A DNA stretch of 64,000 nucleotides from an uncultured Pseudomonadota bacterium. GTDB lineage: Bacteria > Oederibacteriota > Muellerivitia > Muellerivitales > Muellerivitaceae. Position numbers and translations under genes: made by a program. Every line of letters starts with the position of its first letter. Position 1 is the first letter of the stretch. Positions 1-9,368 of this stretch are shown piece by piece. Below the pieces are notes generated by a model. That model saw only the letters and a list, made by a program, of their open reading frames with translations. It ran no database searches and was not told the DNA's origin. Location: contig CAWIIP010000002.1 of the NCBI GenBank assembly GCA_963836235.1, positions 512,001-576,000 on the forward strand, written 5' to 3'.

Positions 1-3000
1 AGGGGTTTCATTTGGGATTTGGGCGGTGCCGTATCGATCAAGATAGGATAATGGGCCGCTTCCTTCCCCACGTTTCCCACCAAATCCTTCACGGTGACGT
101 GAAAGAACCATTTTCCGTCTTTCAAGGCCGGAGCCGCGAGGGATGTGTCCGTCACCCACTTGCCGTTTCCTGGTCCTGGAATAGTGTGGGGTTGAGCGTC
201 AAGTCCTAGGTAATAACCTTCCACGCCTGATTGCTCCCGGGGTGGATCCCACATGAATTTTGGAGACGTCGTCTTGACCCACTGATTGGAGGGATGTGTG
301 GAACTTTTGATAAAAGCCACTCCCGCTTCACTGTCCACCCTTACCTTGAAATAGGCGCAAGCACTGACATTGCCTGCCTTATCCTTGGCGCAAACATGCA
401 GAAACCAGGTCCCGTCTTCGGCGACCGTGGCTACGGTTCCTCGGCCCGTTGTCCAGGTCATGGATTTCAAGTCGGCGGTCCAATTTTCCTCTCCATTAAC
501 GGCGTAGTAATAGCCATCAATGCCTGAAAGATCTCCCGGGTCCTTCCAAACAAACTCCACCCGTCGGGTACCGTACCATTTTTCCAATTGAGGATGGCTA
601 GGGGAGGAAATGACCGGGCTTTCAGCCATCGTGTCAAGCCGTACCCGGAAAGTGGCTACTTCCTTGGAAATATTCCCCGCCACATCCTGGCAAACCACCG
701 AAAGGATATGTACCCCGTCCCGGGGAATATCCAAAGTGATCTCGTTTTTATCCGTAAAGGAAGAAGCTTTCGGGTCGGGTGTTATCTTCGGGTCTTCGGA
801 AAAGGTGTAGTAAAAGCCGGTGATACCCGAAAGATCATCGGGTGAAGCCAGCTTAAAAACCGCCTTGGGCTTCGAATACCACTGTTCCTGCTCTGGGTGG
901 CTGGAAGAGGAGACAAAAGCCCGCCCTACCTCCGTATCCACATGCAGGGGGTAATGCACCGCTTTCCAGTCCACGTTTCCCGCCTTGTCCTTGGTGGTGA
1001 TGTGGAAATACCAGAGCCCGTCGTCGGTAAGTTCGAAGGAAACCATACGCTGGCTGGTGAACAGCGAGTTTTTGTCGTTGGGCACCGTATCGGCCTTGCG
1101 GTCGATGTTGTAGTAGTAACCCTCGATACCGGAATGCTCAAAGGGGTCCTCCCAATTCAAAACCACCCGGCGGTCCCGGTACCAATGGGCGGTTTCCGCG
1201 TGGGTGGAGGAGGACACCTGGGGCGGGCTAACTAATGTATCAATGCAGATTTTGATGTGCCCCGCCTGGGGCGAAATGTTGTCGGCCTTATCCTTGGTGC
1301 GGACATGCACGAACCATTGGCCGTCGTTGATTTCGTCAAAGGTAATCTTGGTCTTTTCGGTCCATTGGGTGGCCTGCGGTGAGCTTGTCGAAACCGTCGA
1401 ATGGGCTTCGGGATCGGGAAGGGTCATGGGATCGTGGTCGATGCAGTAATAATAACCTTCCACTCCCGAGAGATCGTGGGGAGTGTTAATGAGGACTTCC
1501 ACTTTGTTGTTGGAATACCACTGGTCGCTTTGGGGATGGCTGGTGGAAGTAAGCGTGGGAGCCAAAGCCTTGGTGTCGATGCGGATGGGATAATGGGCGG
1601 CCTGGTTGCCCAGATTACCCGCTTCATCCTGGGTAGCGATATGGAGGTACCAAAAGCCGTCCTCGAAAGGCCCCAGCGTCTTGCGGGTCTCTTGCGTGAA
1701 TTCCCCCGCTCCCGGCCCCGGTACGGTGGTCGGCTCGTGATCAGCCTTGATGAAGTAACCCTTCACCCCGGAAAGGTCCTTGGGGGTTTCCCAAGCGATC
1801 ACCGACGTGGGGTTGGCGACCCACTTTTCGCTTTCCGGATGGGTGGAACTGGTTATCTTGACTGGCGGTGCCGCTTCAGTATCTACCAGAATTTTGTAAT
1901 GGGAGGCTTGGCCCCCAATGTTTCCAGCCTCGTCCACTCCCACGACATGGAAGTACCAGGTTCCTTGGGGGGTCGAGGAAAGGGCTACCCGCTTGTCTTC
2001 AGTATAAGAAGCTTCCGGCGGCGCGGGCACGGTTCCCGGATAATGGTTTAAAAGATAATAATAACCGGAGAGCGCTGCCGGTGGATGGAGAAGGATTTCA
2101 ACATCGCTCGACTTCTCCCATTTTCCCGGCTGGGAATGGCTGGGAGACGTGATGGAGGGCGGCGGTACCGGCGGTGTTTTAAAGGATGAGGTCTCACTCA
2201 CCGTCAGGGAGGAAGTCCGATAGGCGCTAACGGCCTTGAATTCATATTCGGTTTCGGATTTCAAATCGGTCAAATGAACGCGGTGCCGTAAATTCATTCC
2301 TTTGTCGATGATCACCTTCCGTAAATCTTGCGATTCTTTTTTCTCACCGTAATGGATTTCGGAAGTGGCGGAGATGTCGGTGATCCAGGTCAGAAGCGCG
2401 CTGGAGGAAGTAAGCCTTTCGACCGTCAAATCCGAGATCGTGGGCATACGGGCCATATCGAATGTGGATCTTAAAAGAGTGCCGCCGTTTTCGGTGCAAG
2501 CATAAAGATAGTCCCCAAAGAGGCCGAAAGAGCGGACTCCTTCCGCGTCCCCCGCGAAGACAGTTTTCCAATCGGTACCATCCTGGGTTTTGAGGACTCT
2601 TCCCGAATTACCCGTCCCGGCATAAAGGGCGTTCTCAAAGACTTCCATGCAATAAAGGTTTAGTTCACGGGCGGTCTCGTAAACGCAAAGCCAATCCAGG
2701 CCGTTCTCGGTACGGTAAATTTTCACTCCCTTGGGGCTGGAAGTCCCGGCGTAAAGGGCCCCATTGAATTCTTGGAAACATTGAATGAAGTTCTGTCCCG
2801 TCGCGGTCATTTCCTCCCAATTGAGCCCGTCGGAGGAGGCAAAGATGAGCCCGCTGGGATAGGTGCCCGCAAAAATCTGGTTCTGGAAAGTTCCCAAACA
2901 GGTAACGGCCACCTCACTCAAGGAACCAACCGTGTTCCATTGCACCCCGTCAAAGGCAAATATTTTTCCTTTGGAGCTGGTTCCCGCGTAAAGCCTGCCC

Positions 3001-3578
3001 TTGAATTCGAGGAGGGAATGAATGCGGTCCTCGTCGGTGGTAAAGGCTTCCTTCCAATTTTCCCCATCGGTGGTTTGGTAGATGCCCCCGTTCAGGTTGG
3101 TTCCGGCGTAAAGAACGGCTTCCTTGCCGGGCGGAGCGTAGACGCAAAGGCAATAAATCTGGGTGACGTAATCCCCCGTCCCTTCCTTGGCGTCTCCCGT
3201 CGAAGAAAAGAACTTGGGGTTCATTTTGGTGAGCAGGATTTTTTTCCAGGAACCAGGAGCGCCACTGCTGGAACGAAGGATGAGGTCCTGTCCCGTGGCG
3301 GCATAGAGATAGCCCCGGTACTCAGCAAGGTCGTAGAGGGTGGAAATATCCTTGAATTCCTCAAGGCTCTCAAAAAAAGCGGGTGTGGCGGAGGTGAAAT
3401 AAAGGTCAATAACGGTTTTAAGCTGTTCCAGGGCTTCTTTAGCCGTCTTGCCCTGTGCCTGACAGCCGGGCAAAAGCGGACAACGGGCCACGACATTGCC
3501 GTGGGCGCGGGTTTCCAATTCAATGGGAAACTCGTAAGCAAAGGATTTCTTTTGGATTTTATCGTCTTTTTTCGACAC
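1..3578 (-). CDS. Giant multidomain protein (>=1192 aa, 3' end off-window): HicB-like domain + beta-propeller + FN3-like + >=7 tandem Ig-like repeats
   Basis: Hand translation from GTG 3578 (AGGTGG SD-like upstream) gives no stop down to base 3. Starts MSKKDDKIQKKSFAYEFPIELETRAHGNVVARCPLLPGCQAQGKTAKEALEQLKTVIDLYF; then seven LYAGT-type repeats; an FN3-like segment (about 2444-2175); then ~95-aa repeats SSTHP..W...DLSG..GYYY...DG.W.FH...D.AGN......IDT. Confidence 0.9.
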   Translation of the reverse strand, partial: MSKKDDKIQKKSFAYEFPIELETRAHGNVVARCPLLPGCQAQGKTAKEALEQLKTVIDLYFTSATPAFFESLEEFKDISTLYDLAEYRGYLYAATGQDLILRSSSGAPGSWKKILLTKMNPKFFSSTGDAKEGTGDYVTQIYCLCVYAPPGKEAVLYAGTNLNGGIYQTTDGENWKEAFTTDEDRIHSLLEFKGRLYAGTSSKGKIFAFDGVQWNTVGSLSEVAVTCLGTFQNQIFAGTYPSGLIFASSDGLNWEEMTATGQNFIQCFQEFNGALYAGTSSPKGVKIYRTENGLDWLCVYETARELNLYCMEVFENALYAGTGNSGRVLKTQDGTDWKTVFAGDAEGVRSFGLFGDYLYACTENGGTLLRSTFDMARMPTISDLTVERLTSSSALLTWITDISATSEIHYGEKKESQDLRKVIIDKGMNLRHRVHLTDLKSETEYEFKAVSAYRTSSLTVSETSSFKTPPVPPPSITSPSHSQPGKWEKSSDVEILLHPPAALSGYYYLLNHYPGTVPAPPEASYTEDKRVALSSTPQGTWYFHVVGVDEAGNIGGQASHYKILVDTEAAPPVKITSSTHPESEKWVANPTSVIAWETPKDLSGVKGYFIKADHEPTTVPGPGAGEFTQETRKTLGPFEDGFWYLHIATQDEAGNLGNQAAHYPIRIDTKALAPTLTSTSHPQSDQWYSNNKVEVLINTPHDLSGVEGYYYCIDHDPMTLPDPEAHSTVSTSSPQATQWTEKTKITFDEINDGQWFVHVRTKDKADNISPQAGHIKICIDTLVSPPQVSSSTHAETAHWYRDRRVVLNWEDPFEHSGIEGYYYNIDRKADTVPNDKNSLFTSQRMVSFELTDDGLWYFHITTKDKAGNVDWKAVHYPLHVDTEVGRAFVSSSSHPEQEQWYSKPKAVFKLASPDDLSGITGFYYTFSEDPKITPDPKASSFTDKNEITLDIPRDGVHILSVVCQDVAGNISKEVATFRVRLDTMAESPVISSPSHPQLEKWYGTRRVEFVWKDPGDLSGIDGYYYAVNGEENWTADLKSMTWTTGRGTVATVAEDGTWFLHVCAKDKAGNVSACAYFKVRVDSEAGVAFIKSSTHPSNQWVKTTSPKFMWDPPREQSGVEGYYLGLDAQPHTIPGPGNGKWVTDTSLAAPALKDGKWFFHVTVKDLVGNVGKEAAHYPILIDTAPPKSQMKP
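1371..1403. repeat. 33-nt REP-like palindromic insertion, in frame within Ig-like repeat 3
   Basis: GGCCTGCGGTGAGCTTGTCGAAACCGTCGAATG; CGGT/ACCG stem around GAGCTTGTCGAA; adds HSTVSTSSPQA relative to sister repeats. Confidence 0.65.
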
Positions 3579-3792: not shown

Positions 3793-4200
3793 TTAATGGG
3801 CATTCATCACCTCATCGTCCAACTGTTTCGCCTTATCCTGCCACTCCGCCTGGCTCGCGTACTGGTTCATCACTATGTCCAGGTAAGGCAGGGCCTGCTT
3901 TTTTATGACGACGATATAAGTTCCATTCGCGAAGTTATAGGCCAAATGATAAAGCGCCGGGGCGCACAAATCCGCCCGTTCCGGATACTGTTGGTACAAT
4001 TGCAAATAGAGGACCCTGGCCTTGTCGGTGTTTCCCATCAAATCGCACCAACGGCCCATGTCATAAATAACATCGGGAGCGTCTGAATCTTTTGGATTGG
4101 CCGCGACCCAAGCCAAAGCCTGGTCCGCGACGAAAGAAGTATTCAAAACCAGGATGAAAACCAGGATTACAGCGCCCGCGATTAAAACTATTTTTTTCAC
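3793..4200 (-). CDS. Exported/membrane-anchored TPR-like protein
   Basis: Hydrophobic N-terminus; TPR/BamD-like helices (ARVLYLQLYQQYP, ALYHLA, VMNQY). Confidence 0.75.
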   Translation of the reverse strand: MKKIVLIAGAVILVFILVLNTSFVADQALAWVAANPKDSDAPDVIYDMGRWCDLMGNTDKARVLYLQLYQQYPERADLCAPALYHLAYNFANGTYIVVIKKQALPYLDIVMNQYASQAEWQDKAKQLDDEVMNAH

Positions 4201-4311
4201 CCGTTCCGCCTTTATCCGGGTTTACCGGATGACTCTCCCTATTAACCTGATCAACTTACGGACTATCTGAAGCCAAATCCAGTGTATCCGGTTTCAATCG
4301 CGAAAAAGCCC

Positions 4312-4365
4312 TCAAAACCTCACCAGCGCCAAACCCATGCACCCCATCAACCAATAGTATTTCAT
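4312..4365 (-). CDS. Putative 17-aa peptide MKYYWLMGCMGLALVRF (small protein or gene remnant)
   Basis: AGGAGG SD 7 nt upstream of ATG 4365; TGA at 4312-4314. Confidence 0.35.
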   Translation of the reverse strand: MKYYWLMGCMGLALVRF

Positions 4366-4404
4366 CGGATAACCTCCTGGATTTTTGTTAAACCGTGCTT
4401 CCAA

Positions 4405-4463
4405 ACCCGCTGGAAAACTGGAGCGATCCAGTTTTCCAGCGGGTGCCCCGGGAAACCCCGGGG
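4405..4463. repeat. Tandem hairpins (perfect 18-bp stem plus 7-bp stem)
   Basis: ACCCGCTGGAAAACTGGA-GCGA-TCCAGTTTTCCAGCGGGT followed by CCCCGGG-AAAC-CCCGGGG. Confidence 0.8.
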
Positions 4464-4477
4464 TCCGTTCAACCCTT

Positions 4478-4663
4478 TTACTTCGCCGCGGGCGTGGAGC
4501 TGGCTTTCATGCTCTTCGTTCCCTTTTTCTTATGTGTTTTCTTCTTGTGTTTCATGGTCTTGGTTCCCGACGTTGGGCCCGGCGTGGCCGGCGCCGCGAA
4601 AATAGGCCCCGATACCGCCACCAGGAATAACACCGCAACCATTGAGGCTAACCACTTTTTCAT
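4478..4663 (-). CDS. Small secreted Lys/His-rich protein
   Basis: AGGAG SD, signal peptide ending IFA, basic tail KHKKKTHKKK. Confidence 0.75.
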   Translation of the reverse strand: MKKWLASMVAVLFLVAVSGPIFAAPATPGPTSGTKTMKHKKKTHKKKGTKSMKASSTPAAK

Positions 4664-4725
4664 AACCTTCTCCTTTTTCTATTTCAAAATATACGGAAGG
4701 GGAAGCCGGCCCTTGGGCAGGCGGA

Positions 4726-4850
4726 CCGGACCCCTTTCCGGACTGCTATTTCCAACTCCCGGCTGGGGCCGGGAACGGATAAATCGCCCGGCCTTTGGGG
4801 GCCGGGCCAGGGCCCGGTGCTGCAACCGGGCCCTTTATCGGGAGGTTAGG
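4726..4850. other. Multi-hairpin structured intergenic element (candidate ncRNA/leader)
   Basis: Stems at 4757-4774, 4786-4807 and 4810-4833; GATAAA (4778-4783) / TTTATC (4834-4839) closes a three-way junction. Confidence 0.5.
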
Positions 4851-4853
4851 AAC

Positions 4854-5285
4854 TCAGAAATAATCGAGCGGCAGGGTCTCCCGGGGTTTGGAATGGGGCA
4901 CATACTTCGGCGTCGCCATGGCCATTCGCTTCGCGTTGTTTACTTCTTCCATGGATAAGTCTTTGTCCACTCGTAAATCCTGGCGCGGGTAGATCAAATC
5001 CGGATCCTTGATCTCATCCCGATTGGCCTTAAAGAGCATGGGCCACTCGAAAGAATCCCCGTAAACCCGTGATTTGCCCGCGATCATCCAAAGGCAATCG
5101 TGCTTTTCGACGAGGTAGTGGCTCAAAGGCTTCAAACTGGCCCTTTGCGCCGGAACCCGCTCGTTCGACATCGTCTTATCCGGCAAGGCGGAGCTATCGA
5201 TCCGCTTAGCGCTTCCGCAGCCGCAAACCCATTCGGTCAAAAACAACAAACCGCAAAGCCAAATGACGTTTTTTCGGTTCAACAT
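4854..5285 (-). CDS. LysM-domain lipoprotein
   Basis: Lipobox-like VCGC; YLVEKHDCLWMIA...KANRDEIKDPDLIYPRQDLRV is a LysM motif. Confidence 0.9.
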   Translation of the reverse strand: MLNRKNVIWLCGLLFLTEWVCGCGSAKRIDSSALPDKTMSNERVPAQRASLKPLSHYLVEKHDCLWMIAGKSRVYGDSFEWPMLFKANRDEIKDPDLIYPRQDLRVDKDLSMEEVNNAKRMAMATPKYVPHSKPRETLPLDYF

Positions 5286-5310
5286 GGTATATCTCCTTTT
5301 CTTTCCAAAT

Positions 5311-5640
5311 TTAAAATTTGAGGGTTTTTAAACGGCTTTTGCCGTAAACCTCGACAAAATCCCGCACCCTCGCCGCGAGAAAATGCCGTTCCGATTCAGA
5401 AAGACTCCTCTCCAAAGTGGAGCAGAAATCTTTCGTCGCGACCTTCAAAACAATTCGAGCTGTCAGTTCGGCCCAAGTTCCCCAATTCCCAACTTTGACT
5501 TTATCGACGGCGTTTAACCAGCTTTTTAACTGGCTGTCGGAATCCATGGCCTCCCTCCATAAAAATTCCTTCATCAAAAGAGAAATCAAACAATAAGGAT
5601 TAAACTTGGGTTCCAGTTCATTCTTTAAAGTGGCTTGCAT
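5311..5640 (-). CDS. Hypothetical protein (alternative start 5547)
   Basis: SD-like motifs before both ATG 5640 and ATG 5547; same orientation and tight spacing with neighbours. Confidence 0.6.
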   Translation of the reverse strand: MQATLKNELEPKFNPYCLISLLMKEFLWREAMDSDSQLKSWLNAVDKVKVGNWGTWAELTARIVLKVATKDFCSTLERSLSESERHFLAARVRDFVEVYGKSRLKTLKF

Positions 5641-5662
5641 AGCTCTTCCTTTCGGGTTGAAT

Positions 5663-6097
5663 TTAACCTTTCAGTGGTTCTTCAACGCCGGAAGCCTTTT
5701 TATCAGGCAGGACGGATTTTGCTTTTGAACCCGTTTTTGTACCCAAAAGCGGCGGGGCATTGCCGGTGGATTCGGTTTCCTGTCCCAAACCCATCGGATG
5801 GGACGCCATCTTTTCCCACCTCCCCGCGAGGTTTTGCCGGATCGACTCTTGAGTCGTTTCCGAAACTGAAACAGCGTGGTCAGGCGTTAAAATTCGCCGG
5901 ACTGTCGAAGCCACCAAAACCTTTTGAACCTGTGGGTTGGATACCGGAACCGATGGATGCGAATGGTCCCGGAAAAACGAGTAAATCGGCTTATCCCAAG
6001 GGACACTTCCGATTTTTTCCCTGATTGGCTGGTAAAAACCGGCCCCGATGATGAGGGTGTAAACTAAGGCGCCTAAATAGAATTCATCACGTTTCAT
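5663..6097 (-). CDS. Hypothetical protein with N-terminal membrane anchor
   Basis: AAGGA SD; hydrophobic FYLGALVYTLIIGAGF followed by a polar region. Confidence 0.65.
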   Translation of the reverse strand: MKRDEFYLGALVYTLIIGAGFYQPIREKIGSVPWDKPIYSFFRDHSHPSVPVSNPQVQKVLVASTVRRILTPDHAVSVSETTQESIRQNLAGRWEKMASHPMGLGQETESTGNAPPLLGTKTGSKAKSVLPDKKASGVEEPLKG

Positions 6098-6196
6098 GGA
6101 ATTTCCTTTCGTAAATATTTTCGGGCGTTAAAGGAACGCGCGAATGACCGGCCGGGTTAAAAAAGAACCCGGCTGGGAATTACACGAAAGGAATTT

Positions 6197-6523
6197 TCAG
6201 ATTCTGAGGACGAGGAAACTCTTGGGGGAGGAAACAACGGAGGCAAAAGCAACTCTTAAATGGTTCTCCAAAAGCGAAGGAGTCTTCACCTTGGAAATCC
6301 GGGCAATCAGGGTCGTTACATCCGGGGCTTCCCTTTCAACATTTCGAAGGGCCGAATGGGGAGCTGAAAGCTCCTGTGAATGAGTGGAAACGGTTTGAGT
6401 TTCTTGTTGATGGGCGGAATGGAGTGAGCCGTTATGAACCGCGACTACGACAGGACGCATGACAAAAGCCGGTAACAAGGCTAAAGCGAGAATTTTGAAG
6501 TAGATTTTGAGCTTTTTGCGCAT
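6197..6523 (-). CDS. Small exported His-containing hypothetical protein ending in LVLRI (candidate leader ORF)
   Basis: Signal-like N-terminus; several His; C-terminus SSPKSFLVLRI. Confidence 0.6.
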   Translation of the reverse strand: MRKKLKIYFKILALALLPAFVMRPVVVAVHNGSLHSAHQQETQTVSTHSQELSAPHSALRNVEREAPDVTTLIARISKVKTPSLLENHLRVAFASVVSSPKSFLVLRI

Positions 6524-6743
6524 CGTCGAGATCCCAATATTTGCTGTTAAAACCTGGAATAATTATTGAATCCCGAGCCCGGTAAAATCAAGAGGGTCCA
6601 ATCCATAATTCTAAACCAGCGAAAGTCCTATGTATTCGACGAATGGACTCAATGGAAAGTTTCTTGAGGAACCTTTTTAGGGAGGGCAAAAAACCTTTTC
6701 TAAGTTCGATCCGCAAAAGCTGAAATGGGACTAGAGACGGGTT

Positions 6744-9368
6744 CTATTCTTCGATCTTTTTCTTCCACTCCCCCAATAGGTTCAAGGCATCCCGAGGGGT
6801 AAGGCCGTCCACATCCAGGCCCTTTAGTTCTTCCAGGATGGGATGCTTGGCCCCGGTGCCAAAGAAGGACAATTGGGGCATCGCCGGTTCTTCCGTTTCG
6901 GTCTTGGAAGGCGCCGGGGCTTCGGCGGTTTTGGAAAGGAAGGTTCCCGTTTCCAGGCTGGCCAAGATCTTCTTGGCCAGGGCCACGACTTCCTTGGGAA
7001 CTCCCGCCAAACGGGCTACCTGAATGCCGTAGCTCTTGTCCGTGCCGCCTTCCACGATCTTGCGCAGGAATAGAATCTGTTCGTTCCATTCCCGTACCGC
7101 GATATTAAAGTTCTTCACATTAGGGAATGTCCCTGACAATCGGGTCAGCTCATGGTAATGGGTGGCAAAAAGAGTGCGGGCCTTTAGCTTTTGGGCGATA
7201 TATTCCACCACCGCCCAGGCGATGGAAACCCCGTCGTAGGTGGAAGTACCCCGCCCCACCTCATCTAGGATGAGCAGGCTCTTGCTGGTCGCGTGGTTCA
7301 GTATATTAGCTGTCTCCACCATTTCGACCATGAAGGTGCTTTGGCCCTGGGTTAGGGCATCGGAAGCCCCCACCCGGGAAAAGATACGGTCCACGATACC
7401 CGCTTTCATCTGCTTGGCAGGCACATAAAATCCCACCTGAGCCATGAGGGAAAGCAGGGCCACTTGGCGAATGTAAGTGCTTTTGCCCGCCATATTGGGG
7501 CCTGTCAGGACGATGATTTCAGTGCCTTCCACACCCAAGTGGGTGTCGTTGGGAACGAACTTGTCCGAGGAAAGGATGCGGTCCAAAACCGGGTGCCGCC
7601 CATCCACAATCGAAAGCTCGGTGGAATCATCCACTTCGGGCCGCACATACCGGCCCCGGTCGGCCACCGCCGCCATACAGGAGAATGTGTCCAGTTCGGC
7701 GATGATGCGGGCCACCCGCTGAAGCCGGGAAAGTTCCTTGGCCACCTGGGAACGGATGCCCTCGAAGATTTCATATTCCAGGCGGTCGGCCTTGTCCTGG
7801 GCCCCTAAAACCTTGCCTTCCATTTCCTTGAGCTCAGGCGTAATAAAACGCTCGGCGTTGACCAGAGTCTGTTTGCGGTGGTAATCCTTGGGCACCTTAT
7901 CCAGGTTGGCCTTGGAAATTTCAATGTAATAGCCGAAGACCGAGGTATAGCGGACCTTGAGGGAGCCGATACCCGTGCGGGCCTTTTCCTTTTCTTCCAA
8001 TTGGGCGATCCAACTTTTGCCCTCGAGGGAGGCGCTCTTTAGCCCATCCAATTCCTTATGGTAACCCGCCTTGATCAGACCGCCTTCCTTGAGGGCCAAA
8101 GGAGGCTCATCGTGGATGGCTTTTTCCAACAATTGTTGGACTTCCTTCAGGTTGTCCCAAACCTCCACCCTTTCCTTGATGGCCTGGGCCTTGAAACCCG
8201 AAAGCACATGGTGAATCTTGGGCAAAAGTGAAAGGGTCGTGCGAAGAGCCACCATGTCCCGGGCGTTAGCCGTTCCACACCCGATGCGCCCCGACAGCCT
8301 TTCCAAATCCGACACCTCCCGGAAATGGTCCCTCAGGGTTTCCCGATCATCCTTGCGGGCCAAAAGCTCCTCAACCGCGTCCTGGCGCCGCTTGATCTGG
8401 GAAACCGAGGTCAAGGGGGTGATGAGCCATTGCCGCAAGAGGCGCCCTCCCATGGAAGTGACCGTCTCATCCAGCACGGAAAGAAGGGTGCCCTCCTTGC
8501 CGTCGTCCCTCATGGGCTTGATGATTTCCAGGTTCCGCTGGGTGGTGGCGTCTAGCACCATGCCCTCCCCCACTTGGAAGGTCGAAAGGGACACAAGGTG
8601 TGATAGGACGCTGTGGGTGGTCTCCTTGAGGTATTGCAGGATGGCCCCCGCCGCCCGCACCGCCTGGTCCTGCCCCGATAGGCCGAACCCGTCGAGGGAC
8701 TTGACCTGGAAATGCTCCTCGAGGATTTCCTTCCCTTCGTCGGTTGAGAACTTCCAATCCTCCATATGGGACCGTTTGGCCCCATTCACGGACTTCAAAA
8801 GCCGGCCCCACTCCTCAACCTCGGGTTGGGTTTGGGGCATGAGGATTTCGGAGGGGTTGAATTTCGAGAGTTCATTGGAAGCCACGGAAAATCGGTCGGG
8901 CCCTTGGAGTTCGCAGGCCTTGAATTCCCCCGTCGTCACATCCACCACGCCAATACCCAGGCCCTGGGCCGACGGCGCGAGGGCGACCAGGTAATTGTTG
9001 GACTTTTCTTCCAGCATGGAAGCCGACAGTATGGTGCCCGGAGTGATGACCCTCGCGATCTCCCGCTTCACCAGGCCCTTGGCCAAAGCCGGGTCTTCCA
9101 TTTGCTCGCAAATGGCGATGGAAAAGCCATTTTTGACCAGTTTCGAGATGTAATTGTCCGCCGCGTGGAAAGGGATGCCCGCCATGGGGACTTTCTGGTT
9201 ATTGCCCCCGGACCGGGCGGTCAGGGTGAGATGGAGAACCCGGGCCGCTGTTTTGGCGTCGTCGAAAAACATTTCGTAAAAATCGCCCAAACGAAAAAAG
9301 AGGATCTCCTCTTTATGGATCCTCTTCAAGTCGAGGTACTGCTTCATCATGGGCGTCAAATCATCCAT
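6744..9368 (-). CDS. mutS: DNA mismatch repair protein MutS
   Basis: TPMMKQY, FFRLGDFYEMF, GPNMAGKST, DEVGRGTST motifs. Confidence 0.98.
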   Translation of the reverse strand: MDDLTPMMKQYLDLKRIHKEEILFFRLGDFYEMFFDDAKTAARVLHLTLTARSGGNNQKVPMAGIPFHAADNYISKLVKNGFSIAICEQMEDPALAKGLVKREIARVITPGTILSASMLEEKSNNYLVALAPSAQGLGIGVVDVTTGEFKACELQGPDRFSVASNELSKFNPSEILMPQTQPEVEEWGRLLKSVNGAKRSHMEDWKFSTDEGKEILEEHFQVKSLDGFGLSGQDQAVRAAGAILQYLKETTHSVLSHLVSLSTFQVGEGMVLDATTQRNLEIIKPMRDDGKEGTLLSVLDETVTSMGGRLLRQWLITPLTSVSQIKRRQDAVEELLARKDDRETLRDHFREVSDLERLSGRIGCGTANARDMVALRTTLSLLPKIHHVLSGFKAQAIKERVEVWDNLKEVQQLLEKAIHDEPPLALKEGGLIKAGYHKELDGLKSASLEGKSWIAQLEEKEKARTGIGSLKVRYTSVFGYYIEISKANLDKVPKDYHRKQTLVNAERFITPELKEMEGKVLGAQDKADRLEYEIFEGIRSQVAKELSRLQRVARIIAELDTFSCMAAVADRGRYVRPEVDDSTELSIVDGRHPVLDRILSSDKFVPNDTHLGVEGTEIIVLTGPNMAGKSTYIRQVALLSLMAQVGFYVPAKQMKAGIVDRIFSRVGASDALTQGQSTFMVEMVETANILNHATSKSLLILDEVGRGTSTYDGVSIAWAVVEYIAQKLKARTLFATHYHELTRLSGTFPNVKNFNIAVREWNEQILFLRKIVEGGTDKSYGIQVARLAGVPKEVVALAKKILASLETGTFLSKTAEAPAPSKTETEEPAMPQLSFFGTGAKHPILEELKGLDVDGLTPRDALNLLGEWKKKIEE

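Follow-up and report, generated by a model that had tools for sequence, protein, structure and literature searches.

Domains of the HicB/UPF0150 type are familiar as small antitoxin modules of the cytoplasm, and Big_13, FN3, CarboxypepD_reg, FlgD_ig-like and Asp-box-type propeller domains are overwhelmingly extracytoplasmic. In this study, both kinds of domain were found in a single protein encoded on the minus strand of a 64,000-nucleotide stretch (hereafter the window; G000:C2:512001-576000) of the genome of an uncultured bacterium (3.97 Mb, 99.4% complete, five contigs). A HicB/UPF0150-fold module, hereafter the head, forms the N-terminus of a giant protein of 1869 residues, in which it is followed by a beta-propeller, an FN3 domain and a stalk of immunoglobulin (Ig)-like repeats. 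Among the closest described systems are HicB/UPF0150 proteins of known structure, namely B. pseudomallei HicB (6g1c, 6g1n), E. coli HicB (6u0i, 6hpb), TTHA0281 (2dsy) and TTHA1756 (2yzt). With these the head shares the strands-then-helix fold, a hydrophobic-Pro-Gly sequence before strand 3, an invariant Gly, and an acidic residue followed by Ala at the start of the helix, and they were the only group to top both the profile and the structure searches. It differs from them in having neither an adjacent hicA nor a ribbon-helix-helix (RHH) or helix-turn-helix (HTH) tail, and in constituting the first 3% of a 1869-residue protein, joined through a short linker to a beta-propeller. The N-terminus of the giant protein is a genuine but divergent HicB/UPF0150-fold module, homologous to the N-terminal fold of HicB, and with moderate confidence we regard it as a HicB fold reused as the docking, retention or targeting head of the giant protein, not as an antitoxin.

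The original prediction, made from the sequence of the window, had noted an uninterrupted minus-strand frame of at least 1192 codons, and the open reading frame (ORF) listing indeed gave a single uninterrupted ORF of exactly this length, beginning with GTG and open at the left end of the window. The remainder was recovered from the same contig; this leftward extension, which had been called for, yielded the C-terminus and a gene of 1869 codons. The gene and its head are located as follows (window positions, unless a contig or the flank sequence L007 is named).

3..3578, minus strand: first 1192 codons of the 1869-codon giant gene (from the ORF listing)
G000:C2:509969-512002 (= L007 13969-16002), minus strand: remainder of the giant gene, left of the window (from the flank sequence)
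L007 13969..19578, minus strand: full giant gene, 1869 residues (from the flank sequence)
3576..3578, minus strand: GTG start codon (from the sequence itself; relatives share this start)
3390..3542, minus strand: HicB/UPF0150-fold head, residues 13-63 (from profile, structure and orthologue comparisons)

An AGGTGG sequence (3587-3582) lies three bases before the GTG, an in-frame TAA (3593-3591) lies five codons 5' of it, and the nearest relative, P0003 (93% identical over residues 1-400), has Met at the same start position. Orthologues were compiled as 38 distinct sequences (26 database proteins plus 15 genome loci, less 3 duplicates), and the head was located at the very N-terminus in all 38, with the start position likewise kept in every one. 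As head and start are thus retained in orthologues from many independent assemblies, the fusion is neither an assembly chimera nor the product of a mis-called start downstream of the head, and both possibilities were ruled out.

The HicB/UPF0150 pattern that had been predicted at the N-terminus was borne out by profile and structure comparisons. The AlphaFold models showed a beta-beta-beta-alpha topology, with strands at residues 20-23, 29-32 and 40-43 and a helix at residues 46-62, on which the motif A31, P37-G38, G43, E48 and A49 is placed; the topology and the acidic residue at the helix start, both taken from the predicted structure, fit the HicB N-terminal domain as described in the portion of PMC13621843 available to us. 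An exhaustive phmmer comparison of residues 1-99 with 1.84 billion representatives returned 136 matches at E <= 1e-3, which, besides relatives of the giant protein, were mostly proteins of 63-125 residues. Among 25 sampled matches, 23 matched PF15919 or PF21748 at E <= 1e-3, 20 of the sample did so above the curated cut-off, and P0140 and P0181 showed no Pfam match. Furthermore, a profile built from 15 N-termini of the giant family only (profile A2) retrieved TTHA1756, two B. pseudomallei HicB entries and TTHA0281 as its four best PDB matches (E 6e-4 to 1.2e-3). Taken singly at E <= 0.01, 8 of these 15 N-termini matched PF15919 and 9 matched PF21748, with a best E of 5.4e-7. When run over the bacterium's own genome, profile A2 identified three places, namely the giant gene itself, a 74-residue HicB adjacent to hicA (E 1.3e-12) and a 71-residue orphan UPF0150 gene (E 1.2e-11), and in BLASTP the head was 41% identical to the former over 39 residues and 39% identical to the latter over 46 residues. 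The 74-residue gene immediately precedes a HicA gene and is hence an authentic hicB.

Comparison of structures pointed to the same group. With the model of residues 1-98, whose predicted local distance difference test score (pLDDT) was 79.5, the top 9 Foldseek matches were all HicB/UPF0150 structures (probability 0.93-1.00), and the best VIA-align match was TTHA0281 (Z 6.7), followed by HicB 6g1c (Z 6.6, root-mean-square deviation 1.8, 54 residues). A search of a protein atlas for look-alikes of residues 1-80 returned none that was usable. Several results nevertheless weigh against the assignment. In the profile scan that had been proposed, other family members matched HicB profiles, and the giant protein's own sequence did not reach the cut-offs: for PF15919, with a cut-off of 27 bits, the scores were 17.7 bits (1192-residue fragment), 17.0 bits (full protein) and 22.7 bits (residues 1-98), and for PF21748, with a cut-off of 27.3 bits, they were 15.2 to 19.1 bits. 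The Foldseek E-values of the head were weak (0.05-0.16), and double-stranded RNA-binding domain (dsRBD) folds came within 1 Z unit of the HicB matches in VIA-align. Structure alone thus cannot separate these folds, and it is the sequence evidence that does so. Among the 38 orthologues, G43 was kept in all, P37 in 37, and an acidic residue (E or D) at position 48 in 33. The mean pairwise identity was 38.5% for the head, 35.6% for FN3 and 47.0% for the propeller; being about as conserved as FN3, the head belongs to the maintained and functional parts of the protein.

The layout behind the head was delineated with Pfam and NCBIfam and by modelling residues 1-480 with AlphaFold2 (mean pLDDT 88.7, predicted template modelling score (pTM) 0.84), and comprises the following elements within the window.

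3342..3389, minus strand: linker, residues 64-79 (from the models of residues 1-480 and 1-98)
2463..3341, minus strand: seven-bladed beta-propeller, residues 80-372 (from the AlphaFold2 model, the repeats, and weak DUF6242 and BamI matches)
2175..2438, minus strand: FN3 domain, residues 381-468 (from Pfam and the model)
3..2147, minus strand: seven of ten Big_13/OmpL47-type Ig-like repeats of about 100 residues, residues 478-1192 (from Pfam/NCBIfam and the repeat starts)

The head is preceded by a disordered stretch (residues 1-12). In the linker, a strand at residues 69-74 was present in the model of residues 1-480 and absent from that of residues 1-98; as it forms only together with the propeller in the model, we infer that it may close the propeller's last blade. 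All seven predicted LYAGT-type repeats were recovered, at residues 91, 156, 196, 235, 275, 318 and 358, and the model has seven four-stranded blades. In these blades and in its five xxDGxxW (Asp-box-like) turns, the propeller resembles those of the BNR/Asp-box, Ycf48 and sortilin types, and it differs from them in that no specific family matched above its cut-off in Pfam or NCBIfam (DUF6242, 28.5-29.0 bits versus 29). The weaker relatives found in a homologue search with residues 1-400 carry PF15902, PF14870 and PF02012.

The FN3-like domain and the stalk of at least seven Ig-like repeats were also substantiated. Pfam fn3 matched residues 381-455 (E 4.6e-7), and the Ig-like repeats, with Big_13 scores of 82 to 93 bits, start at residues 478, 577, 678, 790, 891, 992 and 1092 in the part within the window and at 1389, 1490 and 1591 beyond it, which makes ten in the whole protein. 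A block including a second FN3 domain (residues 1284-1370) is inserted between repeats seven and eight. Outside the window, a CarboxypepD_reg domain occupies residues 1687-1758, and the C-terminus is formed by a beta-sandwich of the last ~90 residues, for which the similarity to FlgD_ig (E 0.04) and CHU_C (E 0.2) lay below any threshold. The C-terminal 189 residues, which comprise these two domains, have an isoelectric point (pI) of 9.06, and the C-terminal 110 residues drew three weak matches from the protein's own genome (E 0.003-0.009). No DNA-binding domain was found in the 1869-residue protein by Pfam, NCBIfam or the model, and it is the propeller that follows the head. In its domains, the protein has the make-up of a surface fibre or adhesin.

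The search with residues 1-400 retrieved 251 proteins at E <= 1e-3; among the 120 relatives listed, 49 cover 94-100% of this region, at identities from 93% down to 32%. Three length classes, of about 1850, 2160 and 2430 residues, are represented among the full-length members, and the subfamily of 2415-2443 residues possesses a different C-terminal end. At least 11 family members bear the Joint Genome Institute (JGI) name 'predicted RNase H-like HicB family nuclease'. Of the phylum's 99 genomes, 65 yielded the giant gene, as did 39 of the 60 that are of high quality, and 17 of 23 families were represented. The gene was almost always a single copy, with two pieces in three genomes; the same query found no match in 28 genomes of families f4-f9. 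The metagenome-assembled genomes of this phylum are labelled candidate division FCPU426 or Firestonebacteria, or else unclassified bacteria or proteobacteria. The giant protein is thus a lineage-specific, single-copy and vertically inherited component of an uncultured phylum. When other long proteins with the same head were sought with the N-terminal profile, all 17 found belonged to this family, either full-length or truncated; as this search was limited to 8000 scored candidates, those sharing most words, it lends weak support to the fusion being unique. This head and propeller also occur together in shorter proteins, namely P0254 (802 residues), P0257 (343 residues), P0256 (300 residues) and P0015 (1275 residues), which sit on long contigs (~9 to 79 kb) and could be either frameshifted or split copies or natural short forms.

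The homologue search that had been suggested was therefore answered in two ways: the same architecture is common in the phylum, and at the loci compared no conserved hicA-like neighbour accompanies it. The latter result bears on one of the two functions originally proposed, that of a cytoplasmic sensor-antitoxin, in which the head would neutralise a HicA-type RNase encoded elsewhere until a trigger, for example a phage protein, on the propeller or stalk frees the RNase. The homology of the head to the HicB domain, the acidic helix-start residue (33/38 orthologues) and the presence of two HicA proteins in the genome are in favour of such a function, and in the portion of PMC13621843 available to us the HicB domain alone is described as enough to inhibit HicA. 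The genomic evidence argues otherwise. In agreement with the predicted absence of a hicA-like ORF upstream, PF07927 (HicA) matched only C2:1901334-1901501 and C2:276153-276317 in this genome, the nearer being ~234 kb away. Moreover, hicA was absent from the window's flank and from 12 close syntenic loci, and Pfam identified HicA in none of the 108 ORFs within 3 kb of the gene at 15 distant loci. Both genomic HicA genes have their own small HicB-type gene directly upstream, so that no orphan toxin is left. A C-terminal DNA-binding domain is missing, and PADLOC gave no match in the head, in the whole protein or in five upstream small ORFs. In addition, the gene is single-copy, fixed in length and vertically inherited across the phylum, unlike toxin-antitoxin (TA) and defence genes, and does not behave as a mobile TA or defence module, and its domain make-up is of the surface type. 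A sensor-antitoxin is accordingly highly improbable, and this part of the original prediction was not upheld.

The lack of a signal peptide or transmembrane (TM) helix, previously noted for the visible part, holds for the whole giant protein, in which the best 19-residue Kyte-Doolittle mean was 1.21. By the same crude measure, no 19-residue window in the 38 orthologues exceeded 1.51, and none of their N-termini resembled a signal peptide. In its own proteome the protein is an exception: 15 of the 17 ORFs of at least 1787 residues in the genome begin with a hydrophobic N-terminal segment (12-residue mean >= 1.74), as against 1.28 for the giant gene, the other exception being C1:238620-243983 (1.37). 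The genome's other giant Ig-repeat ORFs carry signal peptides.

RTX adhesins are described, in the portion of 10.1101/2025.09.30.679566 available to us, as lacking a signal peptide and as having an N-terminal folded module and tandem Ig-like extenders. As these three parts are shared by the giant protein, which likewise resembles LapA and MpIBP in being giant and in the small size of its N-terminal module, it might be an adhesin of the type I secretion system (T1SS) kind, exported C-terminus first in one step, with the fast-folding head and propeller serving as a retention plug in the manner of LapA. The differences, however, are numerous. The giant protein has no C-terminal RTX beta-roll or T1SS signal, its C-terminus being a basic beta-sandwich (pI 9.06), and the RTX nonapeptide GGxGxDxUx had 0 matches anywhere in its sequence. 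Its large globular domain, the propeller, is placed at the N-terminal end instead of close to the C-terminus. Within the searches made, the head showed no homology to any known retention module, and no retention-module family occurred among the Pfam and NCBIfam matches of the protein. As for the machinery, no T1SS-specific genes were found in the 99.4% complete genome: no C39 (PF03412) or C39-like domain was matched there, with controls positive in 7 genomes, and the best score for an HlyD-type T1SS protein (TIGR01843) was 36 bits against a cut-off of 208.65. None of the neighbourhoods scanned contained transporter genes. Export of this kind is therefore very unlikely.

Cargo of the type IX secretion system (T9SS) requires a Sec signal peptide. 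The giant protein resembles such cargo in that its last ~90 residues are faintly similar to the FlgD_ig/CHU_C beta-sandwich, and differs from it in that this similarity is below threshold and the Sec signal peptide is missing. At E <= 0.01, FlgD_ig was matched 76 times and Por_Secre_tail 36 times in the genome, for the most part where large ORFs (of up to 4460 residues) end, which suggests from sequence that a C-terminal domain for sorting or anchoring may be heavily used in the lineage. The giant gene is not among these matches, its terminal domain being too divergent. A SprA_N search gave no match in the genome, and as the control genomes were equally silent, it was uninformative on T9SS.

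The surroundings of the gene were conserved within clades. In the clade of the window, the giant gene lies between mutS and tRNA-Asp.

6744..9368, minus strand: mutS, the conserved upstream neighbour in the clade, regarded as context and not as a functional partner (from locus comparison)

Comparison of 12 of the 15 related loci (the short fragments L011, L020 and L022 being left out) showed mutS upstream in all 12 and a matching tRNA-Asp region downstream in 8, the remaining contigs ending earlier; in some genomes mutS and the giant gene lie about 200 bp from each other, and further upstream are genes for Sel1, TPR/SPOR, MiaB-type, zinc-ribbon, TPR, adenylate cyclase and ScpB proteins. A second clade of 8 loci (L030-L034, L036, L037, L044) exhibits a different fixed context. 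Upstream are 2-oxoacid:ferredoxin oxidoreductase subunits and then, in 7/8, a GNAT gene directly before the giant gene, with a stop/start overlap between the two in three loci; downstream follow a Zn-ribbon single-TM protein of ~280 residues (8/8), a Wzy_C/TPR membrane protein (6/8) and PurN. The GNAT, Zn-ribbon and Wzy_C/TPR genes are candidate clade-specific partners. By tblastn, the Zn-ribbon protein had no match in the genome of the window. The neighbours are housekeeping genes that differ between clades, and with the Zn-ribbon neighbour unmatched here, a conserved operon partner was ruled out.

These contexts touch on a further reading, according to which the giant protein is never exported, its propeller and Ig-like repeats forming an intracellular structure or sensor and its head a contact for protein or RNA. 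Such a cytoplasmic scaffold would agree with the absence of a signal peptide or TM segment in 38/38 orthologues, with the otherwise cytoplasmic occurrence of HicB/UPF0150 domains, and with an ordinary Cys content (17 residues, 0.91%) and a pI of 5.5. The directly adjoining gene for a cytoplasmic GNAT in 7/8 loci of the second clade and the lack of T1SS-type machinery are also consistent with it. It is countered by the domains themselves, for propeller, Big_13, FN3, CarboxypepD_reg and FlgD_ig-like domains are overwhelmingly extracytoplasmic, by the signal peptides on the same genome's other giant Ig-repeat ORFs, and by the envelope proteins encoded downstream in the second clade (Zn-ribbon single-TM, 8/8; Wzy_C/TPR, 6/8). 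On balance, we consider a cytoplasmic scaffold rather unlikely.

The second of the original proposals, that the HicB fold has been repurposed as a docking or export module, agrees with all of these findings and is the one we prefer; the docking or export function itself is put forward as a proposed role. The HicB fold would have been captured from a small antitoxin-type gene, such genes being present in the same genome at ~40% identity, and would have been reused as a compact, independently folding protein-docking head with a short linker to the propeller. Most likely, it would serve to fix or direct the N-terminus of the giant protein, whether by keeping it at the cell or by docking to a partner in export or anchoring, and it would thereby fill the place taken by the signal peptide in the organism's other giant Ig-repeat proteins. 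As a tentative extension of this proposal, to which we assign a rather low probability, the giant fibre may reach the cell surface by an undescribed pathway that is independent of Sec and in which the head serves for recognition or retention, which would explain why 38/38 orthologues lack the signal peptide that other giants carry. The reuse of the fold as a docking head must be set against two results: behind the head the protein consists throughout of domain types that usually occur outside the cytoplasm, whereas searches for an export signal and for machinery dedicated to its export identified neither, and at the loci compared no neighbour was kept across the whole family and no partner for the head was found. 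A complex prediction with two copies of residues 1-375 scored 0.21 against a mark of 0.42, which speaks neither for nor against binding. No RNA sequencing runs were listed as carrying the sequence, and three soil-metagenome DNA runs from one study contained shares of 0.18, 0.08 and 0.07 of the sampled words.

Several further features of the loci were observed. Between mutS and the giant gene (window 3793-6523, minus strand) are six small ORFs, found only in this genome, which encode a 135-residue protein with a signal peptide, a 61-residue Lys-rich protein with a signal peptide, a 143-residue lipoprotein-like protein, and proteins of 109, 144 and 108 residues. None of the six had a tblastn match in the 12 related loci or a Pfam match, and the five other than the 61-residue ORF had no PADLOC match. 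On the other side, the tRNA-Asp directly downstream of the giant gene (L007 13674-13751 = G000:C2:509674-509751) looks like an integration hot spot: it is followed in this genome by a tyrosine integrase, a group II intron reverse transcriptase/maturase and a 766-residue WG-repeat protein, and the corresponding position in relatives is occupied by a split integrase and a TraG-type coupling protein (L042), by AbiEi/AbiEii (L041) or by BrnT/BrnA (L043). At L035, the one locus examined of the subfamily to which its 2155-residue family member belongs, a 441-residue ORF (6471-7793, plus strand) with an FN3 domain and weak FadL/UPF0164-type outer-membrane barrel matches lies 175 bp upstream of the gene for this member, in the same orientation. 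The orphan UPF0150/HicB-like gene of 71 residues (G000:C1:564108-564254; L025 1447-1662, minus strand) has no adjoining hicA; judged by eye, its neighbours are presumably a PIN/VapC toxin and RHH antitoxin pair, with a BirA-like gene downstream.

A title- and abstract-level search of the literature, supplements not covered, found no report of a fusion in which a HicB fold precedes a propeller and Ig stalk, and the FCPU426 literature among the matches listed consisted entirely of surveys. Public databases already contain the fusion proteins, with an automatically assigned name that misleads, and the occurrence of the head on an Ig-repeat giant is unprecedented. For annotation this calls for caution, as the HicB-nuclease label covers 3% of the protein and probably does not describe its function. 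The HicB-type domain, elsewhere an antitoxin module, is here a fixed part of a giant surface-type protein across most of the phylum, and if the proposed reuse is true, it would represent a clean case of an antitoxin fold put to another use. Moreover, a protein of the surface type that is large and conserved but lacks both a recognisable export signal and a known matching secretion system points to a gap in the knowledge of the envelope in this uncultured soil and peat lineage. The finding thus bears both on the evolution of TA-derived folds and on the envelope biology of an uncultured phylum.

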